Shown here piece after piece: positions 10,214-41,184 of a stretch of DNA of 64,000 bases (position 1 is the first letter of the stretch; the number at the start of each line of letters is the position of its first letter). The DNA is taken from the NCBI GenBank assembly GCA_048882965.1, contig JBHLRC010000001.1, positions 18,716 through 82,715 on the forward strand, read 5' to 3'. The notes below the pieces were generated by a model. The model saw only the letters and a program-made list of their open reading frames with translations. It was not told the DNA's origin and ran no database searches. The translations under genes were made by a program, and so were the position numbers. Source of the stretch: Candidatus Thorarchaeota archaeon (GTDB lineage Archaea; Asgardarchaeota; Thorarchaeia; Thorarchaeales; Thorarchaeaceae).

Positions 10214-11353
10214 CTAGATACAGCGGTGAATGACCTCGGGTCCTACTTCCTCGAACTCCTTCTTGGACACCCACATCTTCTGGAATGTCTTCAGTGAGCC
10301 GAGAATGCTTCCACCAATCCAGACAGAGTACTGTCTCTCTGGTGGAGCAATGATTCGGACTTCGATGTTCTCTGGGACTAGCTCGGTGATCTCCTTGTGG
10401 AGCCTCTCCTTGAGTCCTGGGAACATGGTTGAACCGCCTGAGAGTACTATGTTGGCGTATAGGTCACGTCTCAAGTCGACATCGCAAGCCTTGATGGCAT
10501 TGACAATGTGATCGTCGAGTGGCACGGTATCAAGACCTATGGCACTTGGGTTGAAGAACAACTCGGGTGCCTGGAACCTCTCTGCACCGACAGTGATTAC
10601 TTCACCGTCTGGTAGCATGTAGGGTTTGTCAACACCAGCCTTGTCAGCGACAGTCCTTTCCCTCTCGGGATCGAGAGCTACGTAACATAGCTTCTCCTTG
10701 ATGTCTCTGACAATCTCTTTCTCTGCACCACTCACAAAGGTGTAACCCCTCTGTCTGAGTAATCTGCGCAGATACTCGGTGATGTCCCTTCCTGCAAGGT
10801 CAATTCTCTGGATGGCATGGTTGATTGAAAAGCCCTCATAGATTGGTACTATGTGGGTGACACCATCGCCTGAGTCAATGACCAGACCAGTGGTTCGACC
10901 GGATGCGTACAGTGAAAGTACTGCCTGTGTGGCAACATACACTGCGGGCACACCAAAGTTGTCGAACATGACAGATGCCATTCGCTCTCTGTTCTCTCTA
11001 GGATTGAACGGTGCTTCTGTGAGAAGTACCGGATTCTCGCTGGGATCAATCTTGAGATCGTTATAGAATGTGTAACTCCAAATCTTCTCAATAGCGTCCC
11101 AGTCTTCTACGATTCCGTGTGCGATCGGATAGACCAGACGGAGTACACCACGGAGGTTGATAGCCTCTTCACCAATGTAGTAGTCACGTGTATAGTGGTC
11201 CACGTCAGTCATGATTGACTCGTAACGTGGGTAACCAATCAGTGTGGGCCAAACGCTGCGTGGCTGATCTTCGCCGGCGTAACCGTTCTTGCTTAGACCT
11301 GTACCATTGTCGATGACTACAGGCTTCGCGCCAAGAAACTCGTCTTCAGCCAT
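10214..11353 (-). CDS. Eukaryote-like actin (lokiactin-type Asgard actin)
   Basis: Full-length colinear match to eukaryotic actin hallmarks: [13 protein letters not shown](F)[91 protein letters not shown]-terminal HR. ATG start. Confidence 0.95.
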
Positions 11354-11608
11354 TTTTTATCGGTCCTCGTTTAGTGATTTGTTCAGCAGCTCAGAGCCAT
11401 TGAGACTCTGTACTGCTTTTCTGTTCTTGCAAATTCTATTTAAGGGTACGTCCGATGAAAGTCGACTTTTTCGAAAAGTATTTGAATTATGTATAATATA
11501 CCCGTATTTCAAGCCATTTTTGGCCATTTCTAGGCATTTATCTTCGAAAAGTATAATAATAAACTACAAATAATTACTAGCTAATATATCCGCGATAGGT
11601 GCTGAAAA

Positions 11609-12382
11609 ATGCTCAGAAGGCCCGTAGAAGATATTGTCCGGGAGGAGATTGAAACAGTCCGAGCCAGAAGGATAATCCTCGACCAGCTTGAGGGAGGACT
11701 GATGACGGGTGCAGAGCTCAGAGAGAAGATTGCCACTGACATTAAAGCGCAGATGGTTGCTGAGGGAGCTAGTAAGAAAGAGATTGCCAAGGTAAAAGTG
11801 ACAAGTCCCAAGCTCTATTATAACACGCAACGGCTTGAAGACCTTGGAATAATAGTGAGTTGGAAACAATCTCAGTATCGCCTCTTTGAGCTGGATCCCC
11901 GGGCAGTAATTCCTGTTAGGAGAGCTCTTGATATCACAAAACCACTAATGTATGTTACTTCGTTGAATAATCCCGAGGACCAGCGACCATTCGTACAATG
12001 GCTTGTGAACAACCCACACTTCAATCCCAAAAAACTACTTGTCTTTGTTGAAGCTGTTCGCTGGACCCGTGGAGTCTCTCGAATCATGGACCGATTCATT
12101 CCCGATGACGCGTTTCGTGTGTGGACCACCATATGGAGGGAGGTCCCTGAAGAGGTCATGGGCGGGGTAGATGAAACGGACTATGGGAATCTACAGATGA
12201 CATACGAGTTCATAGAAAATGAAATACTCAATCATCTGCCAACACATAACATTATTTTTGACCTTACATTAGGACCACCTCTCATAACACTGGCGATGGC
12301 AAAATTAGCAACCGAATATTCAACAACAGCATTTCATGTGTCGAGATATGATGCAGAAGATGCTGAAGTCAGCTACTACTGA
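11609..12382 (+). CDS. Winged-helix DNA-binding domain fused to a Rossmann-like (possibly CARF-like) sensor domain
   Basis: The N-terminus fits a wHTH (ILDQLEGGLMTGAELREKI...LYYNTQRLEDLGIIVS...YRLFELD). The C-terminal half has alternating beta/alpha character, with KPLMYVTSL, KKLLVFVEA and IIFDLTLGPPLITLAMAKLA. The last resembles the D-x-T-x-G motif of CARF/Cas02710-type domains. The domain call is tentative. Confidence 0.4.
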   Translation: MLRRPVEDIVREEIETVRARRIILDQLEGGLMTGAELREKIATDIKAQMVAEGASKKEIAKVKVTSPKLYYNTQRLEDLGIIVSWKQSQYRLFELDPRAVIPVRRALDITKPLMYVTSLNNPEDQRPFVQWLVNNPHFNPKKLLVFVEAVRWTRGVSRIMDRFIPDDAFRVWTTIWREVPEEVMGGVDETDYGNLQMTYEFIENEILNHLPTHNIIFDLTLGPPLITLAMAKLATEYSTTAFHVSRYDAEDAEVSYY

Positions 12383-12485
12383 AGGAAGTGATGCATTGAC
12401 AAACAAGGCAATTACCACGTTATCGTGGAATCCAATATACATCGAGCATCGACTTGACCTACTATCTAGGACAGTTCATACAACA

Positions 12486-13091
12486 ATGGCCAAAACTCCA
12501 AGGAACAATACAAGACTTCTGACAAAATGTGAGAGATGGGTTCAGGAGATTGGGTTAATTCAGGACGGATTGAAGAGGGTAAGAGAAAGTCTTCTTCCGG
12601 ACTTGGAGAAGACACTTGGAATAGAGTTTGGGCATAAGGAACTTCTTCAGGTTGCAATGTTTCAACCGAGTACAAAGAATATCTTTCTGGAGCTTGAGAC
12701 TCAGTATAGGAGAAGTAAGAATAATCCGCTTGACCAACACGAGTTCGCAGAAATGATAAATCTCAGTGAGATGGCAAAGGTACTTGCACTTGTTGGTGAT
12801 GCGGTCGTTTCATCAGCGGTACTACAGTACTTGTGGGAACCACACATGGGAAATGCTGGAACAATCACTCAGAGAAAGGCGGATATTGTGTCAAATGAAA
12901 ATATGGCCAAGCTTTGTGATGCATGGGGACTCTACGAATATCGCATCCACTTTGATCCAGACATCCCCAGCAAGTCGGAGATTGAACATGATAAGGGCAC
13001 TCTGCTAGAAGCGGTATATGGCATCATCTATATCGAACATGAGTACAAGAAGGTTGTCGAACTTGTGCATCACTTGATCAATATTCAGTGA
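12486..13091 (+). CDS. RNase III-domain protein of the Mini-III type (no dsRBD) with a roughly 100-aa N-terminal extension
   Basis: KVLALVGDAVVSSAVLQYL matches the Mini-III LALAYIGDAIFE motif. KADIVSNENMAKL matches SSRIVSAKSQAEIL. KGTLLEAVYGIIYIE matches STAFEALLGYLFLE. I chose ATG at 12486 because the longer ORF from 12336 overlaps the upstream gene. Confidence 0.65.
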   Translation: MAKTPRNNTRLLTKCERWVQEIGLIQDGLKRVRESLLPDLEKTLGIEFGHKELLQVAMFQPSTKNIFLELETQYRRSKNNPLDQHEFAEMINLSEMAKVLALVGDAVVSSAVLQYLWEPHMGNAGTITQRKADIVSNENMAKLCDAWGLYEYRIHFDPDIPSKSEIEHDKGTLLEAVYGIIYIEHEYKKVVELVHHLINIQ

Positions 13092-14586
13092 GGTCATACT
13101 CATCTTCACGGTATGTAGGAATGTCAGCAACAGGATATGTCTTTTCAAAACGCTTTCGGATTTTATCTGCAATACTGGCGTCGGCATATACACGTACTGA
13201 TGGAATAGTCTGAGCTTGTTGTTTCAGGATTTGCATGATTGGTCCTCCTTCTTGGGTTTCATCAAGGTTTACAATGTCAAAACCCTTCTCACCCCCAACA
13301 AGCAAGGGAATCTTCCCTAAGATCTTCTCTCCGATAGGGGGTGAAACAACATCAATGACAACACCTCCCACCTCCTCGGTCAACTCATTCTCTGCCTCAA
13401 TCAGTTTTGGAACATTGTGAAGCATCTCATGGAACAGTTTTTGGGTATCACTCTCGAATAATGCGAGTGGGCGTGATAGTACCACCTTGAACAACTTACG
13501 ATATCGAATTCGGGCAGCATATTCTCGTACAAAATCAATTGTTGACTCTTCCAGCCATCTGAAAATGTCACCATCAGTCATTCGGGTGAACAGTCCGATG
13601 CACTCATTCTTTGATAGGTCCTCCTCCTTCATCCTGAAATAGGTAGCCTTTGAAATCATCGCCTCAGCAAGTTTGACAGCGTGGTGTAAGTACAGATCAC
13701 TGAACATCCAAGACCGACTCAGAATCAAAGCTTCCAGAGAATGAATTGCTTTGAGCATGAATGCACGAATGTATTTGCCTTCCTTATTCTTCACAACACG
13801 ATTGGTCAGCATCACCCGCTCAGCAGGAAATATACCAAGTTGTACGCCGCTGAAATGTGCGTCGCGAATGAGGTAATCTGTCTTGTCGATATCAAGTGGG
13901 TGATCTACGAACTCTGAGAGCAGACCCATAACTGGGTCTTTTGTTTGACGTCTAAGTATGTTGACAATATCAGATGGATCTATCCCATTCTTTGTAAGGA
14001 CATCAGTTAGACTGCTATTTACTATCAGGAACTCCCCAAGGTCAAGATGGTCGAGTCCAACCCAGGCCTCAAGAGCATACTCAATTGTGTGAGAGGTGGG
14101 AGGATGACCAACATCATGAAGCAATGCGGTTGCTCTGAATAGTTTCTGGTGGTAGTCATCAAGAAGCTGGGAGAATGGTACAAAGCATGCAGTGTCTAGG
14201 TCATCGCAATAGTTTACTACACGAATCGACTTTTGTGCCAGAAAGTTGGTTCCAATGCAGTGTTCAAATCGCGTGTGGGTTGCTCCGGGATATACAAGGT
14301 GGGCTGGACCCAACTGCCGTACATATCGCAGTCTCAACATTTCCCAAGTGGAGATTATGTCAAGTTCCCAGGGTTCGAGAAGTATTGCACCATGGACAGG
14401 GTCCTGTACAGCTTTCTGTCGTGTGTGCTTCTCACCCAAGTTGATGAAATGGGTATGTTCATCAATAGCCTTCTGGATTCTGTCCCAGCTTGCTCCTTTC
14501 TGTTTCCGAGCATTGTCTATCTCAGCTTCTCTCAATCCTGTCAAACGAATGAGTCTGATGGCATCCGTATCAATTTCGTTGGACAT
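13078..14586 (-). CDS. HD-domain phosphohydrolase, SAMHD1/dGTPase-like (COG1078 type)
   Basis: HTRFEHCIGT, LLHDVGHPPTSH and DKTDYLIRDAHFSGV are the characteristic motifs of this HD family. Confidence 0.85.
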   Translation of the reverse strand: MSNEIDTDAIRLIRLTGLREAEIDNARKQKGASWDRIQKAIDEHTHFINLGEKHTRQKAVQDPVHGAILLEPWELDIISTWEMLRLRYVRQLGPAHLVYPGATHTRFEHCIGTNFLAQKSIRVVNYCDDLDTACFVPFSQLLDDYHQKLFRATALLHDVGHPPTSHTIEYALEAWVGLDHLDLGEFLIVNSSLTDVLTKNGIDPSDIVNILRRQTKDPVMGLLSEFVDHPLDIDKTDYLIRDAHFSGVQLGIFPAERVMLTNRVVKNKEGKYIRAFMLKAIHSLEALILSRSWMFSDLYLHHAVKLAEAMISKATYFRMKEEDLSKNECIGLFTRMTDGDIFRWLEESTIDFVREYAARIRYRKLFKVVLSRPLALFESDTQKLFHEMLHNVPKLIEAENELTEEVGGVVIDVVSPPIGEKILGKIPLLVGGEKGFDIVNLDETQEGGPIMQILKQQAQTIPSVRVYADASIADKIRKRFEKTYPVADIPTYREDEYDLTEY

Positions 14587-15336: not shown

Positions 15337-16344
15337 ATGACCAATCTTGAAGTTATCTCAAAGGTTACTTTCAAAGAGGCCATCACGTCTGTCGAGCTTG
15401 TTGACTTTACGGGAGATGGAAGAGCAAATCCAGTTGTTTCAACACTCAATGGTGATGTCATTGTCTATACAATCGAGAAAGGCGCTAACCCAGAGGTGAA
15501 TGAGATTGGTAGGGTTGGTGGATTACCTCCTTTGGCGGCCATGGGTATTGGAGACGTAATCGGTAACGGAAAACCAGACTTTGTGATAGGCGGATTGGAC
15601 AACATTATGCGGGTTCTTGTCCATATGGATGATGAACTGAGTGTCCAAGCAACCACTCCACTAGGTAGTCTTCCTACTGCTGTGGTAGTTCTCAATGTTT
15701 TAAGTGATGATAGGTCAGAAGTGGTTGTTGCCACAACAGATGGCAATCTACGATGCTATGGCTGGTATGATATTGCCCTGGACAAACTTGCTCATAAGGT
15801 GTTAGAGCGACCAATCTTCTCAATCCAGCCGCTTCATAGCAAAGGACTCCCCTATAGCAGGTTTGTCTTTGGAGATGATTCAGGATATCTCTTTGTATAT
15901 CAATACGCAGATGACCGACTTCACGAGAGAGCGAAAATCAGCGCGGGAGGAGAGATCGGACTTGTAGCAACAGGAGATATGACTCACAATGGTTACTCCG
16001 AGGTTGTTACTGTTTCTGATGGGAGAAAGCTAAGTCTGTTTGGGATAGTCAAAGGTGCTATAGAGAAGCATGATTCTGTCAAATCTCCTAAACCGGTCAC
16101 TTCAATCAAGATCGGTAACTTCTGGGAGAATGGGAATGGTCAGATAGTATCAAGTCATTCCAATTCAACTATTACAGTTCTGGGATTCGTAGGTAACAGA
16201 ATAGTTGAGGATACTTCATTGAAAACATCTCGCAAGTCCACGGAGTCGCATCTGGCAGTTGGAGATTTTGATGGCGATGCTAAGGTTGAGCTTGTACAAG
16301 CAGTTGGTACTAATCTATACCTGATAGATGCCTTTGAAGATTGA
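15337..16344 (+). CDS. FG-GAP/VCBS-repeat beta-propeller protein, apparently cytosolic
   Basis: Recurrent motifs are DFTGDGRANPVV, GDVIGNGKPDFVIGG, SDDRSEVVVA, GDMTHNGYSEVV and VGDFDGDAKVELV. No N-terminal signal peptide or TM segment. Confidence 0.7.
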   Translation: MTNLEVISKVTFKEAITSVELVDFTGDGRANPVVSTLNGDVIVYTIEKGANPEVNEIGRVGGLPPLAAMGIGDVIGNGKPDFVIGGLDNIMRVLVHMDDELSVQATTPLGSLPTAVVVLNVLSDDRSEVVVATTDGNLRCYGWYDIALDKLAHKVLERPIFSIQPLHSKGLPYSRFVFGDDSGYLFVYQYADDRLHERAKISAGGEIGLVATGDMTHNGYSEVVTVSDGRKLSLFGIVKGAIEKHDSVKSPKPVTSIKIGNFWENGNGQIVSSHSNSTITVLGFVGNRIVEDTSLKTSRKSTESHLAVGDFDGDAKVELVQAVGTNLYLIDAFED

Positions 16345-37797: not shown

Positions 37798-38634
37798 CTA
37801 TTCTGCTGATTTTACGGCTTCTTCGATTGCCTTATGAATGTCCTTGTGAACTTCAAGAGCCATTTCCATAGCCTGGTCTACAAGTTCTAAGGACATTGGA
37901 CCGGATCCGCCACCTTTTTGCATAGCAGTGAAGTTATCATCCCTATCGACAGCCATTGTCAATCTGCAGTCTTGAGCAAACTCCTCTTTCAGGATAGTAT
38001 CAAGGATTAGATTGTCCTCAATTTTCGCTACTGTGTGCTCAACTGCAATGTTGTTGACGGGTAGAGGCAATATCTCACCAGTGGCTACAACATTTTTCTC
38101 TTCCCACTTCATCTCAGGAAACTTGGTAGTGAGTAGAGCAGCATTAACTGCAATGGATGATGCATCAATGAGGTTACCATCGTACTCCATCGGGTATACA
38201 TCTGCAAATACCATGTAGACTTTTTTGCCTTCTTCAATGCAGAGTTTCTTAACATCCACAGTCTCAGACTCTCTTACACCCCTGTCTACAACTCGAGCCA
38301 GCTCGATGGCATCTTCCTTTGGGGGGCCAAGTTCGAATAACGGCGATGCGATAGGAGACATCTCAGCTGTAACCATGGTTACTCCTTCATCAGGAGAATC
38401 CGGATAAGGATCGCCTACAAGAACCTTCACACCGGCAACAACCGAGGTATTGCCCAGTCTGACTAAAGCTGAGCCCTCAGCTTTTGCTGGTACTACATTG
38501 GTTTCAATCTCTAGCTCTCGATATTCATTGAATGCACGACCATCAAGTCGTTCTCCCTTGCGAAGAAGGTCTGCAATAAACTCACGATCAATATGACTAA
38601 TTGTTTCAGAGCTGTAATCACCCATTCTACTCAT
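37798..38634 (-). CDS. rrp42: Exosome complex subunit Rrp42 (RNase PH-like, inactive)
   Basis: RLDGRAFNEYRELEIE...AEGSALVRLGNTSVVAGVK. 8-nt overlap with rrp41. Confidence 0.9.
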   Translation of the reverse strand: MSRMGDYSSETISHIDREFIADLLRKGERLDGRAFNEYRELEIETNVVPAKAEGSALVRLGNTSVVAGVKVLVGDPYPDSPDEGVTMVTAEMSPIASPLFELGPPKEDAIELARVVDRGVRESETVDVKKLCIEEGKKVYMVFADVYPMEYDGNLIDASSIAVNAALLTTKFPEMKWEEKNVVATGEILPLPVNNIAVEHTVAKIEDNLILDTILKEEFAQDCRLTMAVDRDDNFTAMQKGGGSGPMSLELVDQAMEMALEVHKDIHKAIEEAVKSAE

Positions 38635-39445
38635 CCTCCATCAAGGCGGCTTCGCCAAGATCTGTTTCTAGATCATCGTCGAAGTCATCATCATCTTCGT
38701 CGTCGTCCCCATCATCAGGTGCTTTCTTTACATACTCCCTACGAAGTGCCTCTTTTTGCAGTTCGTGAAGGTATTTGCAGGAATTAATTCCCATCTGCAT
38801 TGCTTCCATGAGTTCTCCTCGAGTGAACGATCCATCCTGTTGAAGAAGGGTTATTTCATCTGTGAGAGGTATAATTGCCATTGGCACATCACCCTGACCG
38901 TACTTGTCTTCTTCATCACCAAGGTCTACAATGAGTTTTCCATCAGCTTTACCAACTGCAACAGCAGGTACTAGGCTTTTCATTGGAATTCCTGCGTCTG
39001 CCAGTGCTAAGGATGCAGCATTGATTGCTGCACAACGAGTACCACCATCTGCTTGTATAACTTGAACGAAGACATCCACTACTGCTTTCGGAAATTCCTC
39101 AAGAAATAGTGCAGGTTTCAATGCATTCGCAATTACCATCGAAATCTCCTTCTCTCTTCGAGATGGAGCTGGCCGCTTTCTGTCGGGTACAGAAAATGTT
39201 GCCATCCGATATTCAACTCGTAAATATGCCCTATCGTTCAATGTCAGGTGTCTTGGATGTAATTCTCTCGGACCATATACACCTGCGATGATGTAGGTTT
39301 TTCCTTGTCGGATGGATGCTGAACCATTAGCTTGTTTGAGCACTCCAACCTTTAGCTCAATCGGTCGTAATTCATCAGGTCTTCGACCATCTATCCTCAA
39401 ACCCTCTGGACTAATCAAAAAATCGGGCTTTACTTCAGGACTCAT
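38627..39445 (-). CDS. rrp41: Exosome complex exonuclease Rrp41 (RNase PH-like) with a poly-acidic C-terminal tail
   Basis: RIDGRRPDELRPIELKVGVL..ANGSA....GKT.IIAGVYGPRE and ADGGTRCAAINAASLALADAG. The tail is DDGDDDEDDDDFDDD. Confidence 0.9.
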   Translation of the reverse strand: MSPEVKPDFLISPEGLRIDGRRPDELRPIELKVGVLKQANGSASIRQGKTYIIAGVYGPRELHPRHLTLNDRAYLRVEYRMATFSVPDRKRPAPSRREKEISMVIANALKPALFLEEFPKAVVDVFVQVIQADGGTRCAAINAASLALADAGIPMKSLVPAVAVGKADGKLIVDLGDEEDKYGQGDVPMAIIPLTDEITLLQQDGSFTRGELMEAMQMGINSCKYLHELQKEALRREYVKKAPDDGDDDEDDDDFDDDLETDLGEAALMEDE

Positions 39446-40389
39446 TCGTCATTCACTTCCTCTGTCTGTTTATCATTTTCTTCATCTTTTTCTTTAGCCT
39501 CAGCCTCGACCTCTGTTGGTTTCTCTTCTTCAACTTCAGTCACAGTTTCAGGCTCTGGTTCAGGTTCCGGTTCTTGTTCGGGTTCGGATGCAGGTTTTGA
39601 TTCGGATTCCACCTCATCGGGTGTTTCTGTTTCAGCAACCTCTGCCTCAGAAGTTTCATCGGAAACACTGATTTCTTCAGGTTCTTGTTCAAGCTCACTG
39701 CGACCCTTGATCTTTGCCATTTCTTCCGTAAGCATCTCACTAATTCGGTCAGTGAGTTTGGATGTGTGCGCTTGATCCTCAATGGTTCTAAATGCCTTAA
39801 TTGCTAGTCTGAGAACCTCTGTGCTAGGAGCACGTATCCAAATTCGTCCGTTCTGACCCACCATAGTTTGGATGTTCAAGTGATCTTTGATCATGTTTAT
39901 CATAGACCCTCTTCTTCCAATTATCCGGGGTATTTTAGCAGGACTCACTTTTAGAACCATGCCGCCTTGGAGAACTCTAAGTCCACGTCCTTTCATCCCA
40001 AGGAATGGACCACTTCCTCTGTCAAAAGCAATCACTTCAGCTGCAATCACGTCTCCGATATCCATGTATTCAGAGATATCATCAGAGTAAGGTCTCCTCA
40101 ACGCATTATTTGCATGAAGGGATGCACCATACGGTCCACCAATGTCTACTTTCCAATTGTTACCAGCCACTAGAGTTATTGTACCAACTACTAGATCACC
40201 ATCTTTTGGGATATAGGCACCCTCAAGAGCTACCACCTTCACAGTGTTTCCTCTGAGTTCTGCTAAACCCACGAGTGAAGAGAATATTTTACCACCCTCT
40301 TCATAAGTGCCAAAAGAGGCTCGGTATCTACCCTCTGCGAGTAACTGACCAGGGACCACTACTTCTCGTTTCTGAAAATATACTGCCAA
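39442..40389 (-). CDS. rrp4: Exosome RNA-binding cap subunit Rrp4 (S1 + KH) with a roughly 90-aa Glu/Pro-rich tail
   Basis: VVPGQLLAEG, an S1-like core (GDLVVGTIT...NWKVDIGG), a KH region (IPRIIGRRGSMINMI), then EPEQEPEPEPEPE. TTG start. Confidence 0.9.
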   Translation of the reverse strand: MAVYFQKREVVVPGQLLAEGRYRASFGTYEEGGKIFSSLVGLAELRGNTVKVVALEGAYIPKDGDLVVGTITLVAGNNWKVDIGGPYGASLHANNALRRPYSDDISEYMDIGDVIAAEVIAFDRGSGPFLGMKGRGLRVLQGGMVLKVSPAKIPRIIGRRGSMINMIKDHLNIQTMVGQNGRIWIRAPSTEVLRLAIKAFRTIEDQAHTSKLTDRISEMLTEEMAKIKGRSELEQEPEEISVSDETSEAEVAETETPDEVESESKPASEPEQEPEPEPEPETVTEVEEEKPTEVEAEAKEKDEENDKQTEEVNDE

Positions 40390-40449
40390 TTATTCAATCC
40401 CTCATTTTGTAATCTTTATGATTTTCAATTCATTATACTTTGTTTCCAC

Positions 40450-41184
40450 TCATCTGACGACTTCGATTCTTATTTGCCCCTTCGTCAGCTTATTGAGTTC
40501 ATCATAGAGTTCCTGTCTTTTCTGCGCAGGAATCTCAACAAGCCCAGTCCAAGACCCATCTTGACCCCATGATTGAGATTTAATCACACCAGCAGTTGCA
40601 ACCATATTGTAACCTTTACCAGAGAATGAGGCAGGTAGAGTGATTTGAAGTTTCACACTCTCAAATGAGATAGGTATTATCACACGGAGCGCTTTCACAA
40701 CAGTGGGAATCTGCTCATCCACACTGATGAAAGGATCAACATGGACCTTCGCTTCCTCCATAGCCTGTCGTATTCTATCAGGTGGATGGGGATGTCCGGT
40801 TTGGGGGTTCATAGCACGCTTGGCTATATGTTCTATGATGGTTTCTGTCTTTTCTGCAACAAGTTGTTCTCTCTGTTCGTGTGTTAATCGGAATTCACCT
40901 TGTTTGATTATCTCTGGAGCAATGTCAAAAATCTCATCAGACCCAAAGGCATCTTTAACAAGACTGTCTGTTGCATGTTCACCGCGTCTTGCATCTTCAT
41001 AGATTTCGAATGACTTTAGAATTTCTTCAAGGGGAATATCTTCACCGCGACGGTAATCAAATGCCAGATTTGGATCTACGAACAGTTCGAATCGAAGGTG
41101 ACCTTTTTGTATTCCGATGACTACTGCATCAAGATCAATCCATTTTTCGCCTGTTTTACGACCAGATCCTCCACCACTCATCAT
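40450..41184 (-). CDS. sdo1: SBDS-family ribosome maturation protein (Sdo1)
   Basis: FELFVDPNLAF...EIYEDARRGEHA...FGSDEIFDIAPEIIKQGEFRLTHEQR matches archaeal SBDS. Confidence 0.9.
   Translation of the reverse strand: MMSGGGSGRKTGEKWIDLDAVVIGIQKGHLRFELFVDPNLAFDYRRGEDIPLEEILKSFEIYEDARRGEHATDSLVKDAFGSDEIFDIAPEIIKQGEFRLTHEQREQLVAEKTETIIEHIAKRAMNPQTGHPHPPDRIRQAMEEAKVHVDPFISVDEQIPTVVKALRVIIPISFESVKLQITLPASFSGKGYNMVATAGVIKSQSWGQDGSWTGLVEIPAQKRQELYDELNKLTKGQIRIEVVR

Follow-up and report, generated by a model that had tools for sequence, protein, structure and literature searches.

Is an RNase III-domain gene that stands directly behind the gene of a CARF-type sensor in an Asgard archaeon part of an antiviral defense module, or does it serve the RNA metabolism of the cell? 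The question is raised by two adjacent genes in a stretch of 64,000 nucleotides (nt) of DNA from Candidatus Thorarchaeota archaeon, which we refer to as the window and whose positions are used throughout. Gene 1 encodes a winged helix-turn-helix (wHTH) joined to a CARF domain, and gene 2 encodes a protein with an RNase III domain and no domain for binding double-stranded RNA (dsRBD). Archaea have generally been described as lacking RNase III and as processing rRNA with the bulge-helix-bulge endonuclease (PMC8339473, PMC11404451). Here, an RNase III-domain enzyme of a separate subtype is conserved throughout an Asgard class. It has a Mini-III-like minimal active site, a classical scaffold, and an extra hairpin, and it always comes together with a CARF sensor, at a housekeeping locus outside CRISPR. 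The best explanation, to which we give about an even chance, is a vertically inherited, Thorarchaeia-wide operon that joins a ligand-sensing wHTH-CARF regulator to an RNA-processing RNase III endonuclease.

Gene 1 and gene 2 form a conserved operon

When one genome for each GTDB species was scanned, 62 loci were found, practically all of them from Thorarchaeota and two of them on complete chromosomes. Gene 1 lay directly upstream of gene 2 in 60 of the 62 species, and the other two loci started at a contig edge. An initial annotation of this DNA, made from the letters alone, had offered to give up its reading of the pair if the two genes never co-occurred elsewhere; adjacency turned out to be the rule. 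Homologues formed 111 clusters for gene 1 and 229 for gene 2, both genes being far beyond chance. Close homologues of both genes all came from metagenome-assembled genomes (MAGs) labelled Thorarchaeota or Promethearchaeota, and the gene 1 clusters were all from Thorarchaeota-type MAGs, with no weaker tail. The place of the pair was fixed as well, with a divergent actin gene on one side and an HD phosphohydrolase gene on the other in nearly all loci, and the flanks outside this four-gene core (actin, gene 1, gene 2, and HD) varied between lineages. When pairwise distances were compared among gene 1, gene 2, and the HD gene, the matrices correlated with r values of 0.77 to 0.86, and the pair fits a joint vertical inheritance with its neighbors. 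A mirror-tree comparison as a sign of co-evolution between gene 1 and gene 2 was rejected: the signal was no higher than with the HD neighbor and is uninformative on interaction.

Gene 1, which is 98% identical to its closest relative, was markedly more conserved than gene 2 in close relatives (L005), at 98% versus 83% and 87% versus 72% identity. One sub-clade had gene 1 at about 70 to 77% identity and gene 2 down to about 50%.

The open reading frame (ORF) of gene 1 was found where the initial annotation had placed it, and the start of gene 2 had to be moved. The reading frame of gene 2 is also open from ATG 12336 and ATG 12360, both of which overlap gene 1. Starting at 12336 gives an ORF of 251 amino acids (aa), in which the residues of gene 2 are numbered here (A151, D155, T222, and E225); gene callers picked ATG 12360 (entry P0001). 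Conservation of the gene 2 family begins at about residue 30 of the 251-aa ORF (LSWxPIxIE), and in a structure model begun at ATG 12360 the first 17 residues had pLDDT values below 50. The upstream in-frame ATGs appear conserved because they fall inside the conserved C-terminal coding region of gene 1. In the clade of the window, the position 14 nt past the stop of gene 1 is occupied by TTG, ATG, or GTG interchangeably, and in many relatives the gene 2 frame is closed upstream of this +14 start codon. A Shine-Dalgarno-like run (GAAGGAAG, 12381 to 12388) lies just 5' of the codon, TTG 12396. Other clades start gene 2 through a 4-nt ATGA/GTGA overlap or at +7 or +9, and the same-strand spacing of gene 1 and gene 2 is kept between -4 and +21 nt across all clades. 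Family conservation upstream, together with the comparative start-codon evidence, excluded ATG 12486, the start first assigned, and favored TTG 12396. This leaves 13 nt between the two genes, where 100 to 150 nt had been stated, and from this spacing they are almost certainly transcribed together and coupled in translation.

Gene 2 belongs to a distinct RNase III subfamily

Pfam model PF00636 (Ribonuclease_3) matched residues 149 to 234 of gene 2 with 49.2 bits (1e-12; cutoff, 27 bits). The same model was present in all gene 2 homologues among the matches listed, and NCBI labels these homologues "ribonuclease III domain-containing protein". The protein has one RNase III domain and no dsRBD, as originally described: there was no dsrm Pfam match in gene 2, and the protein stops at the last helix of the nuclease domain. 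The AlphaFold2 (AF2) model of gene 2 (pLDDT, 89.6) had an all-helical RNase III fold. Its Foldseek matches were all RNase III domains, with TMt values of 0.66 to 0.78 (Drosha and bacterial nuclease domains); Drosha came first, followed by the nuclease domains of bacterial RNase III, plant RTL4, RNase III domain (RIIID) b of Dicer, and mL44.

Active-site equivalences were read from an alignment of reference sequences to a hidden Markov model (HMM) of the gene 2 family; the references had been verified against the PDB (B. subtilis Mini-III, 4oun and 6tnn; Aquifex RNase III, 1yyk), and the codons of the signature motif were checked. Classical RNase III has four catalytic carboxylates, which are E40, D44, D107, and E110 in Aquifex numbering (PMC8136814). 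LALVGD and GTLLEA, singled out in the initial annotation, are the two catalytic motifs of gene 2. Of the catalytic Asp/Glu residues, whose intactness the initial annotation had asked to check, the equivalents of D44 and E110 are kept and invariant, and E40 and D107 are replaced by Ala and Thr. Gene 2 keeps two of the four classical carboxylates (D155 and E225), and the classical set as such is not present. A151, D155, T222, and E225 were invariant in 88 Thorarchaeal gene 2 sequences; in the second motif, the invariant residues were H218, K220, G221, T222, and E225. The A/D/T/E set is the same as in Mini-III (LALVGD155 and GTLLE225 in gene 2 versus LALAYIGD23 and STAFE106), and D23 and E106 of Mini-III are the residues mutated in the deposited structures 6tnn and 4oun. 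From an exhaustive HMM search, 150 representatives were taken; 56 of them have the N-terminal extension, and the A-D-T/S-E pattern was found in 48 of these 56 family representatives. Eukaryotic two-domain RNase III enzymes read E-D-D/N-E at the same four positions.

The N-terminal part, previously described as an unrecognized extension of roughly 100 aa, is in fact a helical hairpin of about 65 aa followed by canonical RNase III helices. Residues 86 to 114 (LLPDLEKTLGIEFGHKELLQVAMFQPS; LEKTLGIEFGHKELLQVAMFQPS) aligned with helices alpha1 and alpha2 of Drosha in a phmmer search against the PDB, in which a Drosha RIIID, alpha1 helix included, was the best match of gene 2. The two helices of the hairpin (H28-45 and H51-86 in model numbering) had pLDDT values of 96 to 98. 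The hairpin bears a conserved basic motif, TPxNNTRLLxKxxRW, with K64 and W68 invariant and T59, R60, and R67 at least 90% conserved, and it matched no Pfam family. Within the catalytic domain, an insertion of about 30 aa separates alpha2 from the signature helix.

Mini-III (class 4; B. subtilis MrnC/YazC, PDB 4oun, 6tnn, 1u61, and 2gsl) has been reported from bacteria and plastids, and it shares with gene 2 the single RNase III domain, the lack of a dsRBD, and the A/D/T/E set. It is an active double-stranded RNA (dsRNA) nuclease that consists of the catalytic domain only, with no additional domains, and has an alpha5b helix and an alpha5b-alpha6 loop in place of RNA-binding motif 4 (PMC4357697). 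Gene 2, in contrast, has the alpha1/alpha2 helices (LEKTLGIEF...LLQVAM), which are absent from Mini-III, as well as the hairpin and the insertion; its protein is 231 aa long, compared to about 140 aa for Mini-III, and its family is archaeal. No Mini-III structure was among the top 50 Foldseek matches of gene 2, and none was found at an E value of 1 or below by phmmer against the PDB. The family HMM gave marginal scores to the references (B. subtilis Mini-III, 16 bits; Aquifex RNase III, 9.5 bits; Bc Mini-III, 3.8 bits).

The best Pfam, PDB, and representative-library matches of gene 2 were classical, Drosha, and Dicer domains. With classical RNase III (Aquifex 1jfz/1yyk, Campylobacter 3o2r, and Thermotoga 1o0w) and the RIIIDs of Drosha and Dicer, gene 2 has in common the catalytic fold, including alpha1, and the GDA and EA motifs. 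It differs from classical RNase III by the absence of a dsRBD, by Ala for E40 and Thr for D107, and by its extra N-terminal and internal helices. The likeness to Mini-III lies in the active site alone; gene 2 is a distinct RNase III subfamily, classical-type by fold and sequence, and not a Mini-III member. The "Mini-III flavor" of the initial annotation thus stands for the active site but not for the class.

A special affinity to Drosha was considered and rejected. Drosha topped the rankings in phmmer against the PDB, in Foldseek, and among the non-family matches of the exhaustive HMM search, yet this is an artefact that arises because the scores of its two domains are added: each Drosha domain scored 20 to 31 bits, versus 43 to 56 bits for single-domain proteins of 140 to 270 aa. 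The likeness to Drosha is no evidence for a special eukaryotic affinity of gene 2.

Gene 1 encodes a winged helix joined to a CARF domain

An AF2 model of gene 1 was built on 59 homologues (pLDDT, 88.9; pTM, 0.85). Its N-terminal part had the secondary structure of a winged helix (H6-16, H18-28, H34-51, H66-78, E82-87, and E90-95), for which Foldseek returned the ArsR-type SqrR and the PadR-type LmrR, and 46 of its 106 positions were at least 90% conserved.

For the C-terminal part, the top 35 Foldseek matches of gene 1 in the PDB were all CARF proteins, with E values of 1e-5 to 1e-3. They included Csm6 (6tug, 1.4e-5), Card1, Cam1, Cdn1, Cad1, Can2, the ring nuclease Sso2081, VC1899, and Csa3, and TMt was 0.51 to 0.58 against the isolated CARF domains of Cam1 and Cad1. 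The PADLOC model PDLC01987 (CARF_m5--CARF) matched residues 12 to 244 (E = 1.1e-22, 79 bits), and a divergent gene 1 ortholog in L075 matched CARF_m5 at 4e-14, together with a weak Csa3 PADLOC match. Gene 1 had no match in Pfam or NCBIfam and none among PDB sequences, whether searched with the single sequence or with a profile, and the CARF domain was recognized solely by the PADLOC model and the fold search. The model, the fold search, and PADLOC agreed on a wHTH with a CARF-type sensor, which is what the initial annotation had proposed from a short motif. The CARF clade itself is already catalogued, as the existence of a PADLOC model shows.

Polar motifs after beta1 and beta4 of CARF domains (D-x-T/S-x-G) form the ligand site. 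Positions of gene 1 with at least 90% conservation were concentrated in three places of its CARF part, namely the beta1-alpha1 loop, the beta4-alpha4 loop, and an insert. The first, TSLxxPEDQRP (T117 to P127, 11957 to 11989), had 8 of 12 positions at this level, including T117, S118, P122, E123, Q125, R126, and P127. The second lies in IIFDLTLGPP, which is beta4 plus the beta4-alpha4 loop of the domain; in FDLTLGP (D218 to P223, 12260 to 12277), 4 of 7 positions reached this level (D218, L219, G222, and P223), in agreement with the earlier view of this stretch as a CARF loop resembling D-x-T-x-G. The third is an Arg/Trp-rich insert between beta2 and beta3 (residues 149 to 172), with 14 conserved positions out of 24. 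The domain does not end at ...AKLA, as had been thought, since the AF2 model has two further strands.

The locus and its shared promoter region

No cas or defense genes were found within the 64-kb window, as the initial annotation had remarked for CRISPR-Cas, and scans for each of the two genes found neither of them in viral contigs. The rest of the window is housekeeping in character (Ras-family GTPase, Sua5/THUMP/Cgi121, hut genes, exosome subunits, SBDS, and transporters), and the gene pair looks like housekeeping RNA processing rather than anti-virus defense. The idea of an Asgard-specific rRNA maturation factor with its regulator fared better than that of a defense module: a lineage-specific RNA-maturation factor is favored, with Thorarchaeia only as the lineage and rRNA as a putative substrate. 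The features of the pair and its surroundings are collected in Table 1.

Table 1. Features of the gene pair and its surroundings in the window; gene 2 residues are numbered in the 251-aa ORF
Feature	Positions	Strand	Basis or remark
Actin (lokiactin-type) gene	10214..11353	-	Pfam Actin 3e-132; divergent neighbor of the operon
Divergent promoter region of the actin gene (-) and gene 1 (+)	11354..11608	.	Conserved blocks
Gene 1, wHTH + CARF (CARF_m5 clade)	11609..12382	+	257-aa ORF, first gene of the operon
Gene 1 residues 1-106, ArsR/PadR-like wHTH with long inserted helix (34-51)	11609..11926	+	AF2, Foldseek
Gene 1 residues 107-257, CARF-type Rossmann-like domain	11927..12379	+	Foldseek, conservation
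Gene 2, dsRBD-less RNase III-domain protein	12396..13091	+	231 aa, likeliest start TTG 12396
Gene 2 residues 36-94, N-terminal helical hairpin	12441..12617	+	AF2; family-specific
Gene 2 residues 86-251, RNase III catalytic domain	12591..13088	+	Pfam, phmmer-PDB, Foldseek
Signature motif A151-L-V-G-D155	12786..12800	+	Ala at E40 position, catalytic Asp (D44) kept
H218-D-K-G-T222-L-L-E225	12987..13010	+	Thr at D107 position, catalytic Glu (E110) kept
SAMHD1/EF1143-like HD phosphohydrolase gene	13078..14586	-	Pfam HD + HD_assoc_2; convergent neighbor

Between the actin gene and gene 1 lie two identical TTCGAAAAGTAT boxes (11470 to 11481 and 11543 to 11554), 73 bp apart, and a 21-nt block, TTACTAGCTAATATATCCGCG (11574 to 11594), which includes a TATA-like TAATATAT. 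Boxes and block were near-invariant at -142, -69, and -38 in 24 to 27 species (gene 1 at least 67% identical), and they stay so in these species, about 24 to 27 in number, while the protein neighbors diverge to about 50 to 70% identity. Three box matches were observed in the window, versus 0.64 expected. The boxes may act as operators. The divergent actin gene was found upstream in every related locus with enough sequence, at 91 to 100% identity, and by way of the shared promoter region the product of gene 1 could possibly act on actin expression.

On the other side, the HD gene converges with gene 2 in almost every related locus. Its PDB matches were 2hek (6e-33), 2o6i, and SAMHD1 (about 1e-19). 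The 3' ends of gene 2 (+) and the HD gene (-) overlap by 14 nt in the window (13078 to 13091), and in the loci examined among relatives their arrangement varied between an overlap of 4 nt and a gap of 13 nt. From the convergent 3' overlap it follows that the two transcripts should overlap, with a sense/antisense duplex beside the RNase III gene.

The pair compared with known systems

Csa3 (PDB 2wte), a family of CRISPR-locus transcription factors, resembles gene 1 in that it joins a CARF sensor to a DNA-binding domain of winged-helix type, and it was among the Foldseek matches of gene 1. Gene 1 differs in the reversed order of the two domains, with the wHTH (residues 1 to 106) ahead of the CARF domain (residues 107 to 257), in having no CRISPR-Cas context, and in belonging to the CARF_m5 family; the Csa3 PADLOC model did not match gene 1 of the window. 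The association with cas10 or a type III system by which ancillary CARF effectors of CRISPR type III are recognized was likewise absent within the 64-kb window.

RtcR with its RtcBA operon is similar in that a CARF regulator stands beside RNA-metabolism enzymes, outside CRISPR immunity. The CARF domain of RtcR governs an operon for RNA repair, takes its cues from RNA-derived signals and operon proteins rather than from oligoadenylates, and binds the enzymes of the operon (PMC9650030, PMC7790460). RtcR is a bacterial sigma54 AAA+ enhancer-binding protein, whereas gene 1 has no more than a plain wHTH as its output domain and is paired with an RNase III. By analogy, RtcR would be the nearest functional counterpart of the gene pair. 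RNase III-domain genes also occur in the rnc-asAgo-helicase clusters of Asgard archaea, where an Rnc with a dsRBD has genes for Argonaute and a DExD/H helicase as its neighbors (Bastiaanssen et al., bioRxiv 10.1101/2023.12.14.571608). Unlike these, gene 2 has no dsRBD and no Ago or helicase neighbor, and both its partner and its lineage are different.

Neither the gene 2 subfamily nor the pairing of CARF with RNase III was found described in the searchable literature, the coverage of which did not extend to the CARF classification paper (PMC7498327).

A model for the operon

In the explanation we favor, gene 1 would be a transcription-factor-like protein, presumably a dimer, whose winged helix binds nucleic acid, most likely the DNA of the divergent actin/gene 1 promoter region, where it would control its own operon. 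Its CARF domain would sense a small nucleotide-like or RNA-derived ligand. Gene 2, translationally coupled to gene 1, would provide an RNase III-domain endonuclease, presumably a homodimer, that works with the reduced catalytic set of Mini-III, one Asp and one Glu per subunit. Its basic N-terminal hairpin probably provides contacts to the substrate, and the enzyme would most likely cut structured or duplex cellular RNA in a specific manner, for example precursors of rRNA or tRNA, or duplexes of sense and antisense RNA. Expression of gene 2 would then be tuned by the CARF regulator to a signal from RNA metabolism, by a logic like that of RtcR and Csa3, outside CRISPR.

If the enzyme is active, it would add a new way of processing RNA in the prokaryotes most closely related to eukaryotes. 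The operon would be a second example of CARF signaling in core RNA metabolism, after RtcR. Two questions are directly testable, namely which ligand the CARF domain of gene 1 binds and which RNA is the target of gene 2.

Several observations weigh against this explanation. Of the four carboxylates of the classical active site, gene 2 lacks two, and a nuclease activity would follow from the parallel with Mini-III. An Rfam scan of the window found nothing, and no candidate substrate RNA came to light. As to regulation, a search of the promoter region found no conserved palindromic operator. The TTCGAWAAGTAT boxes are confined to one clade, and all that the other Thorarchaeal clade shares is a TATA-like box near -35 to -45. 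The block at -38 is probably a core promoter, with B recognition element (BRE) and TATA box. Beyond their common phylogeny, gene 1 and gene 2 gave no sign of co-evolution, with a partial r(g1, g2 given HD) of 0.18. Finally, distant members of the RNase family (25 to 31% identity; L067 to L077) have no CARF partner and stand among other neighbors, with the exception of the Thor-like L075; the nuclease therefore does not strictly need its partner.

Alternative explanations

The gene 1 product could be a subunit of the nuclease and not chiefly a transcription factor. The wHTH-CARF protein would then be bound to the RNase III dimer as a holoenzyme, in which it recruits the substrate through its winged helix, in place of a dsRBD, and/or gates cleavage by a CARF ligand, like a Csm6/Can2-type fusion split in two. 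Strict adjacency and translational coupling suggest stoichiometric co-production, and the RNase has no dsRBD. Other RNase III enzymes that lack a dsRBD or are specialized use protein partners, as Mini-III has L3 and Drosha has DGCR8. A distant relative of gene 2, P0260, has a PCI-like winged helix of its own fused to the nuclease and a predicted long helical region. The CARF domain of RtcR binds the enzymes of its operon in trans (PMC9650030), and the CARF protein could likewise be a nuclease subunit here. However, the winged helix of P0260 is not detectably related to gene 1, the wHTH of gene 1 is of the ArsR/PadR DNA-binding type, the low partial correlation speaks for no extra co-evolution between the two genes, and relatives of the nuclease occur without a CARF partner. 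On balance, we regard a holoenzyme as rather unlikely.

A bolder reading is less probable again. Here, the wHTH-CARF protein and the RNase III of A/D/T/E type would make up a ligand-gated dsRNA-processing machine at the core of Thorarchaeia housekeeping, controlled by a second messenger or by the sensing of RNA ends outside CRISPR, and it might also link RNA processing to the expression of the neighboring actin gene by way of their common divergent promoter. If true, RNase III under the control of CARF would be seen here for the first time, and the rule that archaea lack RNase III would have an exception that spans a whole class.

The RNase III domain could also be catalytically dead and serve as a structural dsRNA- or ribosome-binding protein, like mitoribosomal mL44. 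Only two of the four canonical acidic residues are left, mL44 chains were among the Foldseek matches, and E110, too, is lost in some distant relatives (P0308, and the ADIS and ADTR patterns). Against a pseudo-nuclease stands the invariance of D155 and E225 in all 88 Thorarchaeal sequences, which is difficult to explain without catalysis; moreover, Mini-III, with the same A/D/T/E set and with D23/E106 mutated in its structures, has been described as an active dsRNase (PMC4357697). We consider the loss of catalysis improbable.

There is a slim chance that gene 1 and gene 2 have no functional link and are neighbors from unrelated pathways, kept side by side only because the region rearranges slowly and its gene order is frozen. 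The synteny of the actin and HD genes is just as strong, without an evident functional tie, the mirror-tree comparison shows no coupling specific to gene 1 and gene 2, and the RNase family outside Thorarchaeia occurs without gene 1. On the other hand, the same-strand spacing of -4 to +21 nt is kept in all clades although the flanks beyond the four-gene core differ, and such coupling normally marks co-translated, functionally linked proteins.

Defense genes are typically patchy, mobile, and fast-evolving. A cyclic oligoadenylate-controlled, dsRNA-cleaving module for defense or abortive infection, with its signal from a type III CRISPR or CBASS-like system elsewhere, would agree with the CARF fold and its cyclic oligoadenylate-binding structural neighbors, with the origin of the CARF_m5 model in a defense-oriented HMM library, and with the diverse CRISPR-related systems reported in Asgard genomes (PMC8730458), but this proposal of the initial annotation is highly improbable for a pair that is universal and syntenic at a housekeeping locus, two complete chromosomes included, diverges in step with the neighboring genes, has a highly conserved gene 1, and is found neither near cas or defense genes within 64 kb nor on viral or mobile contigs.

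Distant relatives and further genes of the window

P0260 (L067:346-1506, GCA_019058355.1, 386 aa) has an RNase III domain with LALIGDA...KGTLVEA, its own PCI-like winged helix, and the predicted long helical region. As a fusion of gene 1 and gene 2 (Rosetta stone) it was rejected, since its N-terminus is an unrelated PCI-like wHTH; the protein is a weak hint at most. In one metagenomic lineage (L072:2-268 and L073:2-205), the gene of the distant RNase III relative shares an overlap with the 3' end of one for a Cas4-like PD-(D/E)xK nuclease (PADLOC Cas4, 3e-12). A Methanomicrobiales-labelled MAG with PolD and CofH neighbors (L076:1536-2994) encodes a full-length family member, with an E value of about 1e-53 to the family profile, and this gene is preceded by an overlapping one, whose 237-aa product has no annotated function and no relation to gene 1. 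This may mean that the subfamily reaches beyond Asgard archaea, or the contig may have been mis-binned.

The actin gene was always divergently paired with the wHTH-CARF gene in the related loci L001 to L066. Elsewhere in the window, a Ras-family small GTPase (820 to 1407, -; Pfam Ras, 5e-46) is a typical eukaryotic-signature protein of Asgard archaea. A BBSome-like beta-propeller protein (15337 to 16344, +), eukaryote-flavored by its FG-GAP and BBS2/BBS7-like Pfam matches, is encoded at a distance of two genes from the operon, and this place is kept in several relatives (L001 and L075). The exosome cluster (37798 to 41184, -) comprises two RNase PH subunits of the Rrp41/Rrp42 type, Rrp4, and then SBDS, and this locus for ribosome biogenesis and RNA decay lies about 25 kb from the RNase III gene.

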